Source: Tannockella kyphosi | GTDB taxonomy: Bacteria > Bacillota_I > Bacilli_A > Erysipelotrichales > Coprobacillaceae | Assembly (NCBI RefSeq): GCF_021054785.1 | Contig: NZ_CP088239.1 | Coordinates: 1,590,001-1,622,000 of the forward strand | Reading direction: 5' to 3' | Length of the DNA stretch: 32,000 bases | Shown: positions 25,853 through 32,000 of the stretch, piece by piece | How the letters are laid out: each line of letters opens with the position of its first letter | How positions within the stretch are numbered: the first letter of the stretch is position 1 | Made by a program: the position numbers and the translations under genes | The notes under the pieces: model-generated | Databases searched by the model: none | What the model was told of the DNA's origin: nothing | What the model saw: the letters and a program-made list of their open reading frames with translations, nothing else

Positions 25853-25871
25853 GATGTGATTATCACATCCT
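25851..25871. terminator. Shared bidirectional terminator between the convergent dehydrogenase and PPK2 genes
   Basis: AGGATGTGAT-t-ATCACATCCT palindrome followed by ATTTTTT. Both stop codons touch the stem. Confidence 0.5.
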
Positions 25872-27332
25872 ATTTTTTATTTCTTCTTCTAATTTTTCTC
25901 TAATCGTACGCAACACTTTAATTCTTGCATACATTTTGTCATTACCTTCAATAATAATCCATGGTGCCTCATGTGTAGAAGTTCTTTGAATCATCGTATT
26001 AACAGCTTCTTCATAGACATCCCATTTTTCACGATTACGCCAATCTTCATCCGTTATCTTATAATTCTTTTCAGGAGTATTCACTCGTGTCATAAAACGA
26101 GTATACTGTTCCTCTTTATCAATTTGAATCCAGAACTTTAATACAACCGCACCCCAAGAATGCAACATATCTTCAAATTCATTAATTTCATTATATGCTT
26201 GTTCACAACGCTTTTTATCCGTTAAATCTTCTAGTTTTTCGACCATCACTCGACCATACCAAGTACGATCAAAAATAGCGATATGACCAACTTTAGGAAT
26301 TTCTTTATAAAAACGCCATAAATAATGATGCATTAATTCTTCTTTTGTAGGTGAAGCTACCGGTATCACATCAAAACCTCGAGGATCTAAAGCCCATGAT
26401 AAACGTCGAATGGCACCACCCTTTCCGGCTGCATCCCAGCCTTCAAAAGCTAATACAACAGGTATTTTATTACGATATAATAAGTTTTGTATTTTAGTAA
26501 GTCTATCTTGTTCTTTTTTTAGTTCTTGTTTATATTGTTCTTCTGTTAAATAAGGACGTAAAGAAACATCTTGTAGATAAGGTGTATTTAGATGATTTAC
26601 TAGTAAATTGCTTCTTGTAGTGATTGGTAAACCATTTTCTAAGACATCTTGAAATGTTTTGATCATCGTATCTAAAACTTCTAAAACACCGTCATATTTA
26701 TCTTCATTAAAAACAATATGCCATGGAGCATAGCTTGTATTTGTTTTTGAAAAGAAATCTTCTGCAAGTTTTTTTCGTTGATCATATTGTTTGTGATTGT
26801 TCCAATCTTTTTCAACAATTCTCCAACTCATGTCTTGATCTTCATCTAATTCTTTTAATCTTTTTGCTTGTTCTTTTTTAGAAATATGTAAAAAGAATTT
26901 CATTACAATTGTCCCATCATCTACTAATTGTGCTTCTAAACGATTAATTTTATCAGCCCATTGTTCTTGACTAGCACCATCAATTAGTTGTTCAAAAACA
27001 TCATTATACCAACCTCTATCAAACAATACCATTTTTCCATATAAAGGTAACTTAATGAAAAATCTCCAAAATAAAGGTCTTCTTAATTCATCAATACTTT
27101 TCACCTTTGAAGAATGTACTTGATAATGTCTTGGTTCTAATTGAGAAATAATTTTCCCCAATATTCTACCTTTACCAGAAGCACTCCATCCTTCTAAAAT
27201 AACTACTGTTGGAATATTTTTTTCAAAAATAGTTCTTTGTAAAACTCCTAATTCTTTTTGCTTTTCTTTCACTAATTTCTTTTTTTCTTTCGTAGTAAAT
27301 AAAGCATATTCATTTTCTTTATTATCAAACAT
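25863..27332 (-). CDS. Two-domain polyphosphate kinase 2 (PPK2-PPK2 fusion; polyphosphate:AMP/NMP phosphotransferase-type)
   Basis: Two tandem PPK2 modules, each with a Walker A motif (EGWSASGKG and EGWDAAGKG) and FDRGWY / FDRTWY motifs. 489 aa. Confidence 0.85.
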   Translation of the reverse strand: MFDNKENEYALFTTKEKKKLVKEKQKELGVLQRTIFEKNIPTVVILEGWSASGKGRILGKIISQLEPRHYQVHSSKVKSIDELRRPLFWRFFIKLPLYGKMVLFDRGWYNDVFEQLIDGASQEQWADKINRLEAQLVDDGTIVMKFFLHISKKEQAKRLKELDEDQDMSWRIVEKDWNNHKQYDQRKKLAEDFFSKTNTSYAPWHIVFNEDKYDGVLEVLDTMIKTFQDVLENGLPITTRSNLLVNHLNTPYLQDVSLRPYLTEEQYKQELKKEQDRLTKIQNLLYRNKIPVVLAFEGWDAAGKGGAIRRLSWALDPRGFDVIPVASPTKEELMHHYLWRFYKEIPKVGHIAIFDRTWYGRVMVEKLEDLTDKKRCEQAYNEINEFEDMLHSWGAVVLKFWIQIDKEEQYTRFMTRVNTPEKNYKITDEDWRNREKWDVYEEAVNTMIQRTSTHEAPWIIIEGNDKMYARIKVLRTIREKLEEEIKNRM

Positions 27333-27351: not shown

Positions 27352-27376
27352 TAAAAAAGATGTGAAACTCACATCT
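27352..27376 (-). terminator. Hairpin terminator at the end of the GGDEF-EAL gene, immediately upstream of the PPK2 gene
   Basis: Minus strand reads AGATGTGA-gtt-TCACATCT followed by TTTTTTA. The stop codon of the upstream gene is part of the stem. Confidence 0.5.
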
Positions 27377-28787
27377 ATAATAATTTAATTAACTCTTCTT
27401 GTGGAATTGGTCTAGAAAATAGAAATCCTTGATATATATCACAATCAAATTCTTTAATTAAATCTAATTGTTCTTGTTCTTCAATACCCTCTACTACCGT
27501 CGTAATATTTAATTTCTTAGCCAGTGAGATAATCGCAAGCAACGTTTCTTTTGCTTTAAGACTAGAACTAGCACGATCTAAGAATGACTTATCAATCTTT
27601 AATGTATCAACAGCTATCTCACTAAATCTACTTAATCCCGACATTCCTGTACCAAAATCATCCATACTAACACTAAAACCAGCTTGACGTAATTGATCTA
27701 CTTTTAAGACAGCTTTGCAAGCATCCTGTATTAATGCTGTCTCTGTGATTTCGATATCGAAATCACTAGCACAAACAGAATGTTTTTCCATTATTTTTGT
27801 TAGTTGTTTTAAAACATCTCCTTCTAATAAAGTAATGGTAGAAAGATTGATTGATATTTTAAGGTTTTTCATTTTTTGATTTTTACTAACACTCTCACAA
27901 ACTCTTTCAAAAACATAATAATCTAAACTTAAAATAAATCCATTTCTTTCAAAAACAGGAATAAAATGATCTGGATAAATCAAATTATAATAACCACTAA
28001 CCCAACGAACTAACGCTTCAGCACCTACTATTTGATTTGTTTTTACATCTACTTTTGGTTGATACAACATCGTAAATTCTTTGTTTTCTATTCCTTTTTC
28101 CATAGAATGAACAATTTCATTCTTTACTTTAGAAGCTTTAGCCATATCTTTTGAATAGACTGAACAAGTATTGCCATAAATGAACTTTTCTTTCTTCCTA
28201 GCCTCATCAGCACAATCAATACAATAAGGAATATCTACATTATTAGTATCGATATGATAAATTCCTGAACTTATATAAATACGATAATAATCATGCGATA
28301 TTTGATCTAAAATATTAATACCTTGATTATATTCTTTGATTTTATCTTTTTCAATACTATCAACTACAAACTCTCTTTTCACAATAATCGCAAAACGATC
28401 CCCACCTACTCTAGAAATAGCCTTAGCTTCTTTAAAATAGTTTTCTAACTTCATTGAAAACTCTTGTAATATCCTTGTTCCTTCTTCATATCCAAATATT
28501 TCATTCACATACTTAAAATTATCAATATCCATAAATAACAAAGAATACTCATCATTTGATTCTCTAATAATTTTATTCCCTACTTCACAAAATGCTTGAT
28601 AAGACATAAAACCTGTTAATTCATCTATACTCAATCGTTTTGTAATTTGTCTTTTTTGATGAGTTAAATAGGTCCAAACACATAAAATATTCATCCCTAT
28701 TAACATCAATATCACAAAACTAACTATTTCAATATGACTAGTTTCAATAGCACCACTCGTCAGTCCTACTAATAAAATTTTCTCCAC
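27375..28787 (-). CDS. Membrane-anchored c-di-GMP protein: degenerate GGDEF domain (GGDRF) plus intact EAL phosphodiesterase domain
   Basis: N-terminal TM helix. The GGDEF domain has FMDIDNFKYVNE and RVGGDRFAII. The EAL domain has GAEALVRW, INLS, IEITE, DDFGTG, KIDKSF, EGIE and QGFLFSRP. Confidence 0.85.
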   Translation of the reverse strand: MEKILLVGLTSGAIETSHIEIVSFVILMLIGMNILCVWTYLTHQKRQITKRLSIDELTGFMSYQAFCEVGNKIIRESNDEYSLLFMDIDNFKYVNEIFGYEEGTRILQEFSMKLENYFKEAKAISRVGGDRFAIIVKREFVVDSIEKDKIKEYNQGINILDQISHDYYRIYISSGIYHIDTNNVDIPYCIDCADEARKKEKFIYGNTCSVYSKDMAKASKVKNEIVHSMEKGIENKEFTMLYQPKVDVKTNQIVGAEALVRWVSGYYNLIYPDHFIPVFERNGFILSLDYYVFERVCESVSKNQKMKNLKISINLSTITLLEGDVLKQLTKIMEKHSVCASDFDIEITETALIQDACKAVLKVDQLRQAGFSVSMDDFGTGMSGLSRFSEIAVDTLKIDKSFLDRASSSLKAKETLLAIISLAKKLNITTVVEGIEEQEQLDLIKEFDCDIYQGFLFSRPIPQEELIKLL

Positions 28788-29320: not shown

Positions 29321-29342
29321 TTAGACACATGGAGTGCATATA

Positions 29343-29957
29343 ATGAACGTAGGACAACGTATCAAAGAGTTAAGAAAAGAAAAAGGGTTAACACAAGAAG
29401 AATTAGGTCTTTTAATCGGTGTTAAAAAGTCTGCTGTTGCTAAATATGAAAATAATCGAGTTGAAAACTTGAAAAGAACGACAATAAAGAAGTTAGCAGA
29501 TGTTTTTGATGTCAGTCCATCTATATTTATCATCGATGAAGAAGAAACAATAATCTATAATAAAGTTTTTGAAATTCCTGTTTTTAAAACAGTCCCTTGT
29601 GGTGTTCCTATGGCTGTTATTGAATGGATAGTTGACTATGAGAAAATAGATGAAAAAGCTATATCCAATGGTTCATTCTATGGATTAAGAGCTTTGGACG
29701 ATAGTATGTATCCAAATATAATGGAAGATGATATCCTGATTATCAAACAAACATCTATTGTAGATAGTGGAAAAATCGCTATTGTAAAAGTAAATGAGGA
29801 AGAAGCTACTTGTAAAAAAATAATTATTAGTGACTCTGGTATTACGATAGTACCTTTCAATTCAAGTTATGATCCTATTCATTATAGTAGAGATGATATT
29901 AAAAAAATACCTGTATCAATCTGTGGCGAAGTAGTCGAGATTAGAAGGAAGATGTAG
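29343..29957 (+). CDS. CI/LexA-like repressor: XRE-family HTH plus S24 self-cleaving peptidase domain
   Basis: HTH_3 motif QRIKELRKEKGLTQEELGLLIGVKKSAVAKYENN. The S24 part has the nucleophile context LDDSMYP and a Lys in TCKKI, plus a Cys-Gly (VPCGVP) at the position of the LexA/UmuD cleavage site. ATG 29343 has a GGAGTG SD 6 nt upstream; the track start 29334 is a GTG inside that SD. Confidence 0.8.
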   Translation: MNVGQRIKELRKEKGLTQEELGLLIGVKKSAVAKYENNRVENLKRTTIKKLADVFDVSPSIFIIDEEETIIYNKVFEIPVFKTVPCGVPMAVIEWIVDYEKIDEKAISNGSFYGLRALDDSMYPNIMEDDILIIKQTSIVDSGKIAIVKVNEEEATCKKIIISDSGITIVPFNSSYDPIHYSRDDIKKIPVSICGEVVEIRRKM

Positions 29958-29981: not shown

Positions 29982-30182
29982 ATGAAAATCGGCATGAGAA
30001 AACCTAGTATTAAAAAATCATTTAAAGCACGAACTACAGGCAAAGCAAAGAGAGCAGTAAAAAAGGCTATTATTCCAGCTTATGGTAAAAAGGGTACTGG
30101 TATTATTAAGAACCCCAAAAAAGCTGTATATAACAAGGTATACAACAAAACTAGCTTTAGTATTTTTAAGTTTTTTAAATAA
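29982..30182 (+). CDS. Very basic lysine-rich small protein (66 aa), function unknown
   Basis: Strong SD AAGAGGAGGA 7 nt upstream. About one third of the residues are Lys/Arg. The RKPS.KKS.KARTTGKAKR..KK...P.YGKKG.G..K.PKKA.YNKVY..T pattern looks like a conserved motif I have seen in Firmicute phage/mobile-element proteins, from memory only. Confidence 0.55.
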   Translation: MKIGMRKPSIKKSFKARTTGKAKRAVKKAIIPAYGKKGTGIIKNPKKAVYNKVYNKTSFSIFKFFK

Positions 30183-30246
30183 ACGTATTTAATAAGATAT
30201 ATAGAAAGGAATAAAAACAAAATATTTATCTATAATAATAAAGAGC

Positions 30247-30286
30247 GGTAGAAGTACTCTAAGTGAGCCTACTCGTGCATATGACG
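30247..30286 (+). repeat. Copy 1 of the module repeated upstream of abi
   Basis: GGTAGAAGTACTCTAAGTGAGCCTACTCGTGCATATGACG. It shares the blocks GTAG / TAYTCTAAGTGARCC / GTG / TGACG with copy 2 (25 of 27 aligned positions identical, with three indels). Confidence 0.6.
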
Positions 30287-30295
30287 AAATAAGTG

Positions 30296-30324
30296 TTGAC
30301 TTCAAAATCAATTTACTGTATATT
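30296..30324 (+). promoter_or_regulatory. Near-consensus sigma-A promoter inside the intergenic spacer, between the two module copies
   Basis: TTGACT (30296-30301), exactly 17 nt, TATATT (30319-30324), with TG immediately 5' of the -10. Confidence 0.5.
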
Positions 30325-30330
30325 TGTTGT

Positions 30331-30410
30331 ATGGAAAGCGACCGTAGTATTCTAAGTGAACCGTGTGACGCGCAAACAAACTCTTTATCGTTATGATAAA
30401 GGGTTTTTTG
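30331..30410 (+). ncRNA. Candidate ~80-nt small RNA (putative RNA antitoxin / regulatory RNA of the Abi_2 HEPN gene)
   Basis: Bounded by the promoter above (predicted TSS near A30331) and a canonical intrinsic terminator. It contains module copy 2. The ends are predicted, not measured. Confidence 0.4.
30342..30370 (+). repeat. Copy 2 of the module repeated upstream of abi
   Basis: CCGTAGTATTCTAAGTGAACCGTGTGACG. The 17-nt ungapped core AGTATTCTAAGTGAACC (30346-30362) matches AGTACTCTAAGTGAGCC (30253-30269), which is 93 nt upstream. Confidence 0.6.
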
Positions 30411-30413
30411 TTT
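30381..30413 (+). terminator. Canonical Rho-independent terminator directly upstream of the abi start codon
   Basis: CTCTTTATC-gttat-GATAAAGGG, a 9-bp stem with one G.U pair, followed by TTTTTTGTTT. Confidence 0.7.
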
Positions 30414-30423
30414 ATAATAATAT

Positions 30424-31383
30424 ATGAAACCATTTAAAAGCATAGACGAGCAAATTGAAATATTAAAAGAACGTGGATTAATTATCGATGACTATGAATT
30501 CGCTAAAAAGTATCTCTTGCATAATAATTACTATAATGTTATTAATGCTCACTCACACTTTATTTACAAAAATAATAATAATAATTTTATTGATAATTTG
30601 ACATTTAAAGAGATAGTAGCAATTCATTATTTTGACAAAGAAGTTAAGAGCATCCTGTTTAAACATCTACTTGATTCAGAGAAGAGATTTAAATCTATAG
30701 TCGCTTATAAATTTTCCGAAAAGTACGGCTCTAATGATTATCCATATCTTAATGTTAATAATTACAATCCAAAATCTATTTTCGAAGTAACTAGTACTAT
30801 TGCAAAAATTTCGCAAATTATACAAAGGAAAAAATCAAAACCCGGCAATTCCATTAGTCATTATTTCCAAATATATGATAATATTCCATTTTGGATAATT
30901 ACTAACGAATTAACATTCGGTCAAACACTCCATCTATATGATCATTTTGATATATCCCTACGAAATAGTATAGCTAAGGAATTTAGCCTGATTTTAGAGG
31001 ATAACTTAGAAGTTGAAGGGGTTCGAATAACACCTGACGACCTATATACAACGTTAAATAATTTATTAGAAATAAGAAATATACTAGCCCATAATAATCT
31101 TATGTACTACTTCAAATGTAGAAAGAACATTCCTTATATAACAGAATTACATAATCTCTTCGACATGAAACATGATTCCCCTAAGAATGCTGTATATGAC
31201 GTGTTTCTTGCACTATATTGTACTTTATCCTATAACCAATATGTCGAATTGCACAATACAATTAGAAAAAGAGCGAGGACACTTAACAGAAATCTAGTAG
31301 TTATTGATGCAAATGTGGTTATGAACAGCTTAGGTTTTCCAGACGATTGGTTTAATTGCCCTGCCAAACCTACCAGAAATTAA
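30424..31383 (+). CDS. Abi_2 family (AbiD/AbiD1/AbiF-like) abortive-infection protein with a HEPN Rx4H motif
   Basis: N-terminus KPFKSIDEQIEILKERGLIIDD...YLLHNNYY, central IPFWIITNELTFGQTLHLY, and a single HEPN motif R218-NILA-H223 (LLEIRNILAHNN, nt 31075-31092). 319 aa. Confidence 0.85.
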   Translation: MKPFKSIDEQIEILKERGLIIDDYEFAKKYLLHNNYYNVINAHSHFIYKNNNNNFIDNLTFKEIVAIHYFDKEVKSILFKHLLDSEKRFKSIVAYKFSEKYGSNDYPYLNVNNYNPKSIFEVTSTIAKISQIIQRKKSKPGNSISHYFQIYDNIPFWIITNELTFGQTLHLYDHFDISLRNSIAKEFSLILEDNLEVEGVRITPDDLYTTLNNLLEIRNILAHNNLMYYFKCRKNIPYITELHNLFDMKHDSPKNAVYDVFLALYCTLSYNQYVELHNTIRKRARTLNRNLVVIDANVVMNSLGFPDDWFNCPAKPTRN

Positions 31384-31436
31384 AAAAATAAAAAACATCC
31401 CGCGCCAACGAGATGTAAAATAAAAGCACATTTCAA

Positions 31437-31514: not shown

Positions 31515-32000
31515 TTAATAAAAGTAGCTGCCTATTGCAGATTTAATAGTGATAATCAAAGGACAGAAAGTATCGATGCACAATTGTGTGCAATAAAAGA
31601 ATACTGTAAAAGAAATAAATATATACTAGAACGCATTTATTTTGATGAGGCAAAGAGTAGAACTAATGATGATAGAGAACAGTTCCAGGCAATGATCAGT
31701 GACAGTAATAGAGCTTATTAGAGAGGCATTCTTTACACCTGGTAATATTGATGTCATTGCAAATGAAATCTATGCTTATGTAGAAAATAATTCTAAAAAC
31801 AATAATAAAATAGTAACTGATTTGATAAATGAAGTTAAAACCCTAGAAAGCAATATCCTAATGCTTATGCCAAGGAAACTATTATCTTTAATCTTGAAGA
31901 AATAAAGGATTATTTAAACGCTTTAGAAAAACAAAATAAAAGAATGCTCATTGAAGCATTCCTTTATAAAGTAATAGTATATGACAAACGTATTTTGGTT
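31515..32000 (+). pseudogene. Disrupted large serine recombinase (resolvase/invertase-type N-terminus joined to a C-terminal tail); continues past the window end
   Basis: My translation of 31515-31718 gives LIKVAAYCRFNSDNQRTESIDAQLCAIKEYCKRNKYILERIYFDEAKSRTNDDREQFQAMISDSNRAY*, a resolvase N-terminus. ATA sits where the start codon is expected, and Asn replaces the catalytic Ser (RFNSDNQ versus R[VY]S[ST]D.Q). From ~31700 a different frame gives ..VIELIREAFFTPGNIDVIANEI.., and after another frame change ..AKETIIFNLEEIKDYLNALEKQNKRMLIEAFLYKVIVYDKRILV, which looks like a typical recombinase C-terminal tail. Most of the catalytic, recombinase and zinc-ribbon domains are missing. Confidence 0.65.

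Follow-up and report, generated by a model that had tools for sequence, protein, structure and literature searches.

A putative RNA-antitoxin locus of the AbiD/AbiF family in Tannockella kyphosi and a hairpin class conserved upstream of related abi genes

The abi gene and its product

The window described here, a stretch of 32,000 nucleotides (nt) from Tannockella kyphosi (contig NZ_CP088239.1, positions 1,590,001 to 1,622,000; GC content, 30%), carries near its end the gene abi, which encodes a 319-residue HEPN protein of the Abi_2 family. The 241-nt spacer 5' of abi (window positions 30183 to 30423) contains two copies of a short hairpin module together with a promoter and an intrinsic terminator (Table 1). 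Comparison with related loci indicates that a conserved structured noncoding RNA (ncRNA), predicted from sequence, is encoded immediately 5' of the abi gene and on the same strand.

The N terminus of Abi reads MKPFKSIDEQIEILKERGLII, and a IPFWIITNELTFGQTL block starts at residue 154. The product of the open reading frame (ORF) is 100% identical to the database entry "Abi family protein [Tannockella kyphosi]" and matches Pfam Abi_2 (PF07751) with 111 bits at a cut-off of 25.6 bits (E value, 1.1e-31; profile positions 1 to 183 of 184). The PADLOC profile AbiD (E value, 4.4e-47; positions 4 to 274 of 277) and PHROG 2158, "abortive infection resistance protein" (E value, 1.3e-70), are matched as well. 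The HEPN motif R218-N-I-L-A-H223 is the sole R-x4-H sequence of the protein, with R218, N219, A222, and H223 invariant in an alignment of 30 homologues. Toxicity of the related AbiFCd and PbAbiF requires the residues equivalent to R218 and H223 (PMC12373285). A search of the Protein Data Bank (PDB) with the sequence of Abi finds only 8vz6_A (E value, 2e-10). The AlphaFold2 model of Abi (pLDDT, 94.1; pTM, 0.90) leads to the same chain, since 8vz6_A, titled "PbAbiF dimer bound to ncRNA", is the sole PDB entry that Foldseek matches significantly (E value, 4.1e-9; probability, 1.00; TM scores, 0.68/0.72); the runner-up has an E value above 1. Profile, HEPN motif, and fold all match, and Abi is a member of the Abi_2/AbiD-AbiF family. 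Its nearest homologues, none more than 49% identical, come from Erysipelotrichaceae, Coprobacillus, and [Clostridium] innocuum, followed by those from Streptococcus, Enterococcus, Negativicutes, and lactobacilli.

Organization of the upstream spacer

The spacer contains a direct repeat whose copies start at 30244 and 30337, with a spacing of 93 nt and 77% identity over 26 nt. A scan for promoter consensus sequences, reporting sites with at least 9 of 12 matches, places its top site, P2, between the two copies. Transcription from P2 is predicted to start near 30331 and to yield an RNA of ~79 nt ending at the T-run of the terminator. The core stem of this terminator spans positions 30381 to 30403 and is followed by T6 at 30404 to 30409, leaving 14 nt to the ATG. 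A terminator is found in the corresponding position in every relative examined; its predicted role in the window is to end the small RNA or RNAs and to gate transcription into abi. The candidate −10 box of a distal promoter, P1, escaped the consensus scan with fewer than 9 of 12 matches.

The start codon of abi is not preceded by a Shine-Dalgarno (SD) sequence between positions −20 and −3, in contrast to the 11 closest relatives, all of which have one (GGAGG or AAGGAG). An SD core is present in this interval for at least 19 of 25 window ORFs checked, and its absence from abi is thus unusual. Speculatively, the TATAAT in front of the ATG could drive a leaderless abi mRNA. The same TATAAT repeats the sequence preceding copy 1 (repeat families D3 and D4; 30215-30240 and 30374-30422), and this pre-copy-1 sequence, AAACAAAATATTTATCTATAATAATA, resembles the 5' arm of the terminator plus the pre-ATG sequence minus the middle. 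The resemblance may be the remnant of an earlier cassette or, in AT-rich DNA, perhaps chance.

A preliminary description of this DNA had listed the Abi_2 layout with one R-x4-H motif at R218 to H223, a conserved module with a diverged second copy 93 nt upstream, the promoter TTGACT-17-TATATT at 30296 to 30324, a terminator with a 9-bp stem and U6 ending 14 nt before the ATG, and a toxin gene without an SD sequence. The profile, repeat, promoter, and terminator searches recover each of these features, and the module is also recovered by a covariance model, as described below. The spacer and abi are identical across five independent assemblies.

On its own, the spacer is inconspicuous. The region contains 12 promoter-like sites, compared to 9.6 expected, which is no excess over chance at 30% GC. 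The z scores of the minimum free energy (MFE) lie between −1.3 and −1.9 for the P2 transcript and the entire spacer and are −0.15 and +1.2 for the modules folded alone, and single-sequence folding of the spacer puts the inner stem of the hairpin in another register. As the promoter count is near chance and single-sequence folding is unremarkable, the case for a small-RNA cassette rests on comparative evidence.

A conserved hairpin class upstream of Abi_2 genes

Relatives of Abi were fetched as 80 loci (numbered with the prefix L) from contigs representing one genome per species, out of 296 relatives in GTDB. They are found with an alignment as the query; a query of the genome contigs with the single protein gave no relatives. 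The upstream plan common to these loci consists of a promoter, a module of ~32 nt, a terminator, and the start codon. A sequence-only hidden Markov model (HMM) built from 13 seed modules matches 47 of the 80 loci, and nearly all of its matches, including every one with an E value below 0.1, lie on the coding strand directly 5' of abi. The general covariance model of the hairpin, R3, was built without the window and run on a search space of 436 kb. It yields 60 matches at an E value of ≤1, all of them on the plus strand immediately 5' of abi, covering 46 of the 80 loci and the window. The 34 loci missed by R3 are mostly near-identical ones of the Streptococcus mitis group (L008 type), with a variant hairpin as judged by eye. 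R3 matches neither phage phiC2 nor any of six further Abi_2 loci that are more distant or variant and include an S. mitis island of the L008 type. Members of the clade come from gut Erysipelotrichaceae, Negativicutes, lactobacilli, and streptococci; in the S. mitis group, there are copies borne on islands.

Two forms of the hairpin can be distinguished. The class A module has the form AGYG-NNNN-(2 nt)-NCUC-UACG-GRGN-NNNN-YRCG and folds so that an outer stem of 7 bp is separated by a 2-nt bulge on the 5' side from an inner stem of 3 to 4 bp, which is capped by a UACG tetraloop. Among 25 distinct modules, 94.5% of the cells are paired, compared to 32 to 47% when the 3' partners are slid by 1 to 3 columns. 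Full covariation is seen at pairs 9-30 (AU/CG/UA/GU), 10-29 (UA/CG), and 11-28 (GC/AU), none of 500 shuffles reaches the observed score, and RNAalifold independently predicts the same fold. Pair 8-31 is G-U in 23 of the 25 sequences. A conserved G-U pair would be C-A on the opposite strand, which argues that the hairpin acts as RNA in a strand-specific manner; a DNA-level operator is rejected for this reason.

Class B comprises the window and six of the closest relatives of its protein (L006, L009, L037, L040, L046, and L052), mostly annotated as Erysipelotrichales. The 5' side of the fold has an internal loop of 5 nt and the 3' side a one-base bulge, with CUC/GAG or UUC/GAA as the inner stem and UAYGU or UAAGU as the pentaloop. 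Here, 97.5% of the positions are paired, compared to 23 to 44% after sliding, and the inner stem covaries between C-G and U-A. The conserved covarying structure that the preliminary description suggested looking for upstream of homologous genes is therefore present. Three further tools were discarded. Model R1, restricted to class A hairpins, is too narrow, giving window copy 1 only 6.3 bits and missing L006, L009, and L040; an alignment derived from it at an E value of ≤10 contained false hits; and a home-made descriptor (AG, 7-bp hairpin, G) matches too readily, at 0.66 background hits per 305 nt.

The two copies in the window were scored with R2, a class B covariance model trained on the relatives without the window and run on both strands of the 32 kb. 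Copy 1 has a 7-bp outer stem, GCGGUAG/CUACU-(C)-GU, with a one-base 3' bulge, an inner stem CUC/GAG, and the loop UAAGU, and all 10 of its pairs are standard. R2 matches it over its full length with zero mismatched pairs (30240 to 30280; 36.1 bits; E value, 1.5e-8), and R3 gives it 29.5 bits (E value, 9e-5 in 436 kb). Copy 1 and the L052 module do not differ in the first 28 nt, at a protein identity of just 45%, so that the RNA is far better conserved than the protein. Copy 2 has an inner stem UUC/GAA and a proposed outer stem GCGACCG/CG-(U)-GU-(GA)-CGC, with all 10 proposed pairs being Watson-Crick pairs. R2 finds its core as a local match (30344 to 30362; 16.8 bits; E value, 0.0064), and the sequence-only HMM gives E values of 0.0022 for copy 1 and 2.1 for copy 2. 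The frequency of a 7-bp pairing like that of copy 2 is 3.2% among shuffled flanks and 0.9% among random 15-mers from the window. Copies 1 and 2 differ by three double, compensatory changes, two in the outer stem (U-A to C-G and A-U to C-G) and one in the inner stem (C-G to U-A). Apart from the two copies, R2 finds nothing better than an E value of 3 in the window. The repeat thus exceeds chance, as a covariance model made from relatives only recovers both of its copies.

Table 1. Features of the abi locus and its surroundings (window positions)
Feature	Position	Strand	Basis or remark
CI/LexA-like helix-turn-helix and peptidase S24 repressor	29334-29957		Upstream of abi
66-residue basic, lysine-rich ORF with strong SD	29982-30182		Several PHROGs of unknown function
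Candidate −10 box TATAAT of distal promoter P1	30231..30236	+	7 nt 5' of module copy 1; read from sequence
Hairpin module copy 1, AGCGGUAGAAGUACUCUAAGUGAGCCUACUCGUG	30244..30277	+	R2, R3, and HMM matches; paired positions 30245-30276
Promoter P2, TTGACT-17-TATATT	30296..30324	+	Top scan site, 10/12 matches; counterpart conserved in 11 relatives
Hairpin module copy 2 (diverged), AGCGACCGUAGUAUUCUAAGUGAACCGUGUGACGCGC	30337..30373	+	R2 local match; paired positions 30338-30371
Intrinsic terminator, 9-bp stem CUCUUUAUC/GAUAAAGGG, loop GUUAU, U6	30381..30409	+	Terminator scan, MFE fold, conserved position
Leader, 14 nt, without SD	30410..30423	+	TATAAT at 30413-30418, 5 nt 5' of ATG
abi gene	30424..31383	+	319-residue Abi_2/AbiD-F family HEPN protein, putative RNase toxin
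HEPN catalytic motif codons, R218-N-I-L-A-H223	31075..31092	+	Sole R-x4-H in Abi
GC-rich hairpin, probable bidirectional terminator	31395..31416	-	Terminator scan; directly 3' of abi stop
Serine-recombinase (resolvase) fragments	31584-31905		Pfam E value 0.0018, sub-threshold

Relation to the Rfam abiF motif

The curated Rfam abiF motif, RF03085 (Weinberg et al. 2017), likewise describes hairpins of ~35 nt that precede Abi_2 genes and have an interrupted stem. Its consensus, CCCGCC-A-AGC-loop-GCU-CAAAUC-GGCGGG, has another layout: RF03085 contains a large single-stranded internal loop on the 3' side, whereas the hairpins of the window clade have their unpaired bases on the 5' side and a conserved UACG loop. 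RF03085 gives no match at an E value of ≤10 in the spacers of the window and L001 and none at the gathering score of 37 bits in 20 relatives. The positive controls are matched, with 37.6 and 19.5 bits for RCd22 of phiC2 and 40.1 bits for a Bacteroides fragilis plasmid. An Rfam scan of the window at an E value of ≤10 returns only terminator-driven noise (STnc40, PyrR, and RsaA). The preliminary description had called for such a scan and expected the RNA partner to be uncharacterized. The window RNA, predicted from sequence, is not the Rfam abiF motif but belongs to a separate hairpin class without an Rfam model.

Other Abi_2 clades show further diversity. Among the loci examined, only those of the C. 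difficile and the Bacteroides (Bacteroidales) types carry RF03085, which the window clade lacks. More distant Abi_2 genes each have a different short hairpin RNA of their own, located between a sigma-70 promoter and a terminator. Four of them belong to Enterococcus phage IME197, Listeria phage LMC, Erysipelothrix phage SE-1, and a Leptotrichia plasmid (L087 to L090), and neither R3 nor RF03085 matches these four loci. The fifth is on a Lactococcus plasmid (L093, 200-300), as judged by eye. In the B. fragilis plasmid L091, the RF03085 motif (319-355; 40.1 bits) is located inside the annotated "Abi family protein" coding sequence (254-1270), and therefore, the annotated start is probably too far upstream, swallowing the ncRNA.

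Tandem cassettes in the closest relatives

Two complete tandem cassettes are present in 11 relatives (L001 to L004, L006, L007, L009, L037, L040, L046, and L052), which are the closest ones of the window protein (42 to 49% identity) and stem mostly from genomes or bins of the Erysipelotrichales type. Their first cassette consists of a −10 box, module 1, and terminator 1 and their second of a promoter, module 2, and terminator 2, after which come a strong SD sequence and the ATG. A TATAAT-like box is situated 4 to 13 nt (mostly 6 to 9 nt) 5' of the first AGCG in all 11, and the promoter between the copies, TTGACA-17-TAtAAT, is conserved in position in all 11 as well. L005 (1-260) carries at least three head-to-tail cassettes of TTGACA promoter, hairpin, and terminator with a period of 117 nt, reaching the contig end. 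All other relatives have one cassette. In many of these single-cassette relatives (L041, L047, L048, L049, L050, L073, and others), GGAGG serves both as the SD sequence and as the 3' terminator arm within the last ~35 nt 5' of the start codon, which the U-run directly adjoins. On read-through transcripts, the terminator hairpin would thus mask the ribosome-binding site as well.

The window differs from the two-cassette plan in missing terminator 1, with a distance of 93 nt from module 1 to module 2, compared to 102 to 129 nt in the relatives. The promoter between the copies, which the preliminary description regarded as an undescribed detail together with the duplication, is rather the conserved plan of the 11 closest relatives. 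It is the ancestral plan of this subclade as judged from the sequences, from which the window derives by loss of terminator 1 and of the SD sequence. With terminator 1 lost, a distal transcript in the window would carry both hairpins and measure ~167 nt. Such a predicted two-hairpin RNA would be convergent with RCd22 of C. difficile.

Orphan hairpins in Streptococcus thermophilus phages

Copies of the hairpin also occur apart from abi. A scan of IMG/VR with the exact pattern gave 48 matches, mostly due to chance in coding DNA, and none is followed by abi. The meaningful group consists of 12 contigs of S. thermophilus phages with a perfect class A module, AGCGCCAGUAACUCUACGGGGUCUGGUGCG. Except in L140, where the flanks differ, the module stands between an extended −10 promoter (TGnTATAAT) and a directly adjoining U5-7 (11 of 12 contigs). 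The unannotated orphan hairpin of ~40 nt is also found in the cultured phages Sfi21, Sfi19, Sfi11, SFi18, O1205, and CHPC919. The phage loci bearing it are L097, L111, L113, L118, L119, L123, L128 (11847-11885), L131, L134, L136, L140, L141, L142, and L143. R3 scores the copies of six contigs, Sfi21, and O1205 with 32 to 45 bits.

The Sfi21 copy (NC_000872, 22631-22669; L142, 1522-1560) lies between the endolysin gene and a block of small genes that includes the annotated AcrIIA5 gene, ~0.9 kb downstream, and attP; the O1205 copy corresponds to L143, 1522-1560. No Abi_2 ORF is found in the examined DNA of the hairpin-bearing phage contigs, and the whole Sfi21 genome contains no ORF of the Abi_2 clade. 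The closest abi-linked relative of the orphan hairpin is the module of S. infantis and S. mitis, one compensatory change (U-A to C-G) apart. Downstream of the phage hairpin are additional mini-units in which TGnTATAAT, a short GC-rich hairpin, and a T-run succeed each other (L128, 11893-12035; L142, 1568-1640); they match no Rfam family and may be an array of small phage RNAs.

These stand-alone copies without abi, like the autonomous distal cassettes of the 11 relatives, indirectly support an action of the hairpin in trans. The most economical reading of the sequences is that the phage hairpin may be an orphan antitoxin or an antitoxin mimic. A phage-encoded antitoxin mimic, pseudo-ToxI, is known for ToxIN. 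A literature search found no paper describing the orphan hairpin of the S. thermophilus phages.

Genomic context

The abi unit is part of an island of ~3.6 kb between a gene for a GGDEF-EAL protein and smpB-rnr-secG, which lie just past the window end. The 66-residue ORF upstream of the spacer matches the first ~66 residues of phrog_10934, phrog_3374, phrog_29766, and phrog_4721 (E values down to 6e-32) and has ~73% DNA identity to hypothetical genes on plasmids of Lactococcus, Paraclostridium, and [Eubacterium] eligens. The hairpin 3' of abi was called on the minus strand, and since A/T runs flank it on both sides, it is probably a bidirectional terminator that closes the unit. The S24 repressor, the resolvase fragments, and the adjoining smpB-rnr-secG genes (window positions 29334-29957 and 31584-31905; L082, 12008-14921) mark a decayed mobile island. 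No tRNA or transfer-messenger RNA (tmRNA) gene is found at the island edge in the window or in L082. Relatives adjoin integrases in streptococcal satellite phages and prophages, and the abi cassette of L006 abuts the tmRNA gene. The neighboring chromosomal genes, encoding a two-domain polyphosphate kinase 2 (25863-27332) and the GGDEF-EAL protein (27375-28787), are unrelated to the abi unit.

Comparison with characterized systems

AbiF and the ncRNA encoded with it in cis form an established type III toxin-antitoxin (TA) system (Saunier 2025, PMC12373285; Zilberzwige-Tal, Cell 2025, as cited in PMC12373285, PMC12737573, and PMC13064643), and thus, the system concept is not new. PbAbiF is reported to be a dimer binding two ncRNAs that block the HEPN site (Zilberzwige-Tal 2025, as reported in PMC12737573 and PMC13064643), and AbiF was proposed as the ancestor of Cas13 (Zilberzwige-Tal 2025, as reported in PMC12737573). 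The literature invoked in the preliminary description, namely, on an ncRNA antitoxin of AbiF and a proposed origin of Cas13 from this family, is accordingly real.

PbAbiF/AbiFr (8VZ6) and the window share an Abi_2 HEPN protein with R-x4-H and a short structured ncRNA directly upstream on the same strand, and the same logic of an RNA-blocked RNase is proposed for both. The proteins are only 17% identical in the structural alignment, and the window locus has two RNA copies.

The window shares its gene order with AbiFCd/RCd22 of Clostridioides difficile, likewise located on mobile DNA (prophage phi027/phiC2), where promoter, two hairpin motifs, terminator, and abiF follow each other. RCd22 contains two RF03085 motifs transcribed from one promoter, with the terminator just 5' of abiF, and it neutralizes AbiFCd in cis and in trans through direct binding and additionally acts in cis by premature termination (PMC12373285). 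The small RNA is the major product there and read-through gives the toxin mRNA; the corresponding window transcripts are predicted from sequence. The two proteins share 29% identity over 233 residues, and abiFCd has the SD sequence AGGTGA, in contrast to the window abi. A further difference is the one promoter and one transcript of RCd22, compared to the strong promoter between the copies in the window and the separate termination of each copy in the relatives.

The lactococcal proteins AbiD, AbiD1, and AbiF, encoded on plasmids pBF61, pIL105, and pNP40, need an upstream promoter-terminator sequence for activity or clonability, and this sequence is conserved more than the gene (PMC11381338, PMC13064643). 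Translation of the abiD1 mRNA is reported to be activated by a phage protein that binds this mRNA (PMC13064643). The window Abi belongs to the same protein superfamily (PADLOC AbiD); the proteins are nevertheless very distant, with only an 18-residue BLASTP segment aligning with a lactococcal plasmid Abi, and the upstream RNA looks different by eye.

ToxIN and AbiQ/antiQ are analogous in that the gene for an endoribonuclease toxin is preceded by that for an RNA antitoxin, with a terminator in between, and in their link to abortive infection. The likeness to their repeated antitoxins, drawn in the preliminary description, does not extend to the repeats or to the toxin. The contiguous tandem repeats of ToxI and antiQ yield monomers when the toxin cuts them, whereas the window copies are 93 nt apart with a promoter between them. 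The comparison of repeats fails because copies of the window type are separate transcription units, and a ToxI-like processed repeat array is rejected. The toxin adopts the Abi_2/HEPN fold instead of the ToxN/AbiQ fold. Cas13 bound to the direct-repeat hairpin of its CRISPR RNA is a further analogy, as a HEPN RNase restrained by a bound hairpin RNA; unlike Cas13, Abi has a single HEPN domain in each chain and is associated with neither a spacer or guide nor a CRISPR array or cas genes.

Proposed mechanism and alternative explanations

The T. kyphosi locus is probably an AbiD/AbiF-type (Abi_2, HEPN RNase) abortive-infection or type III-like TA module in a small decayed mobile island, and by analogy, the upstream structured RNA most likely keeps the toxin off. 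All in silico evidence fits the pairing of an Abi_2/AbiF HEPN toxin with an upstream RNA antitoxin that the preliminary description put forward. The protein family, the conservation, covariation, strand, and position of the hairpin, and the conserved placement of promoter and terminator are seen directly in the comparisons.

Transcription, binding, toxicity, neutralization, and the trigger would follow PbAbiF/AbiFr and AbiFCd/RCd22 by homology. P2 would give rise to an abundant small RNA of ~79 nt containing hairpin 2 and the terminator hairpin. The weak distal −10 box or read-in from upstream would yield transcripts with hairpin 1 that run to terminator 2, forming the two-hairpin RNA. Rare read-through of the terminator would be the only source of abi mRNA, which lacks a ribosome-binding site, and the toxin would therefore be very low relative to the RNA. 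Abi would dimerize via the HEPN domain, each protomer binding one hairpin that blocks the R218/H223 RNase site. Phage infection would shut off host transcription or otherwise deplete or displace the labile RNA, and the freed RNase would cleave cellular RNA, leading to growth arrest and an aborted infection.

Several observations weigh against this reading. The distal promoter P1 is without a recognizable −35 element, which makes its activity uncertain. The gene-proximal copy 2 has an irregular outer stem with two bulges, and its proposed fold has −2.6 kcal/mol, compared to −4.0 kcal/mol for the MFE structure. The hairpin differs from the characterized abiF motif, and the protein-RNA contacts of 8VZ6 are thus not simply transferable. 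With the island decayed and the SD sequence lost, the system may be weakly active or silent.

The last point leads to the alternative of a decaying, silent member of the family in T. kyphosi, with an untranslated toxin and degenerating RNA copies. The losses of the SD sequence and of terminator 1, with the shortened distance of the modules, fit this picture, as do the thermodynamically weak outer stem of copy 2, the recombinase surviving only in fragments, and the small size of the island. Against it, the ORF is intact and keeps every residue invariant in the 30 homologues, P2 and terminator 2 are strong, the differences of copies 1 and 2 are compensatory and not random, and spacer and gene are the same in all five assemblies. 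A silent remnant is rather unlikely.

The hairpin-terminator unit could also be a cis-acting leader only, that is, an attenuator or a sensor of phage or host factors controlling read-through or translation of abi, with no antitoxin in trans. The proximal module and the terminator do lie in the 5' leader of abi, and the premature termination by RCd22, the activation of AbiD1 translation by a phage protein, and the SD sequence inside the terminator arm of many relatives are all compatible with control in cis. The distal copy, however, cannot be an abi leader, because it has its own −10 box and its own terminator in the 11 relatives and is located outside the abi mRNA, and the phages carry stand-alone copies without abi. 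An exclusively cis-acting leader is very unlikely. Since cis control and antitoxin action coexist in RCd22, such control complements the RNA-antitoxin reading.

A chance origin of module, promoter, and terminator in AT-rich spacer DNA, as the unenriched promoter-like sites and the unremarkable folding energies would allow, is refuted by covariance models from other species finding both copies and nothing else in 32 kb and by the conservation and covariation of the module at the same position in dozens of species.

Implications for the AbiD/AbiF family

The novelty lies in the RNA class (relative to Rfam), the tandem autonomous cassettes, and the phage orphans; the Tannockella locus itself is an ordinary, somewhat degraded member of the AbiD/AbiF RNA-antitoxin systems. 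Tentatively, the hairpin might represent a distinct, undescribed class of AbiF-family antitoxin RNAs that has been amplified as arrays of autonomous mini-genes and captured by phages as an RNA anti-defense decoy against AbiD/F, similar to pseudo-ToxI. If this possible scenario is true, the mini-gene arrays, with two units in the closest relatives and at least three in L005, bear on the path from an AbiF ncRNA to a multiunit array en route to Cas13.

AbiD/AbiF proteins are among the commonest single-gene defense hits in Bacillota, and their RNA-antitoxin nature was shown only in 2025. As RF03085, the sole curated RNA model, misses this clade, annotation pipelines call its systems single-gene systems. 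A second well-supported hairpin class offers a comparative handle on how AbiF proteins recognize RNA and are blocked by it and on the coevolution of RNA and protein. The tandem cassettes provide testable cases of antitoxin dosage, and the orphan hairpins within anti-defense regions of the dairy phages provide those of RNA-based counter-defense.

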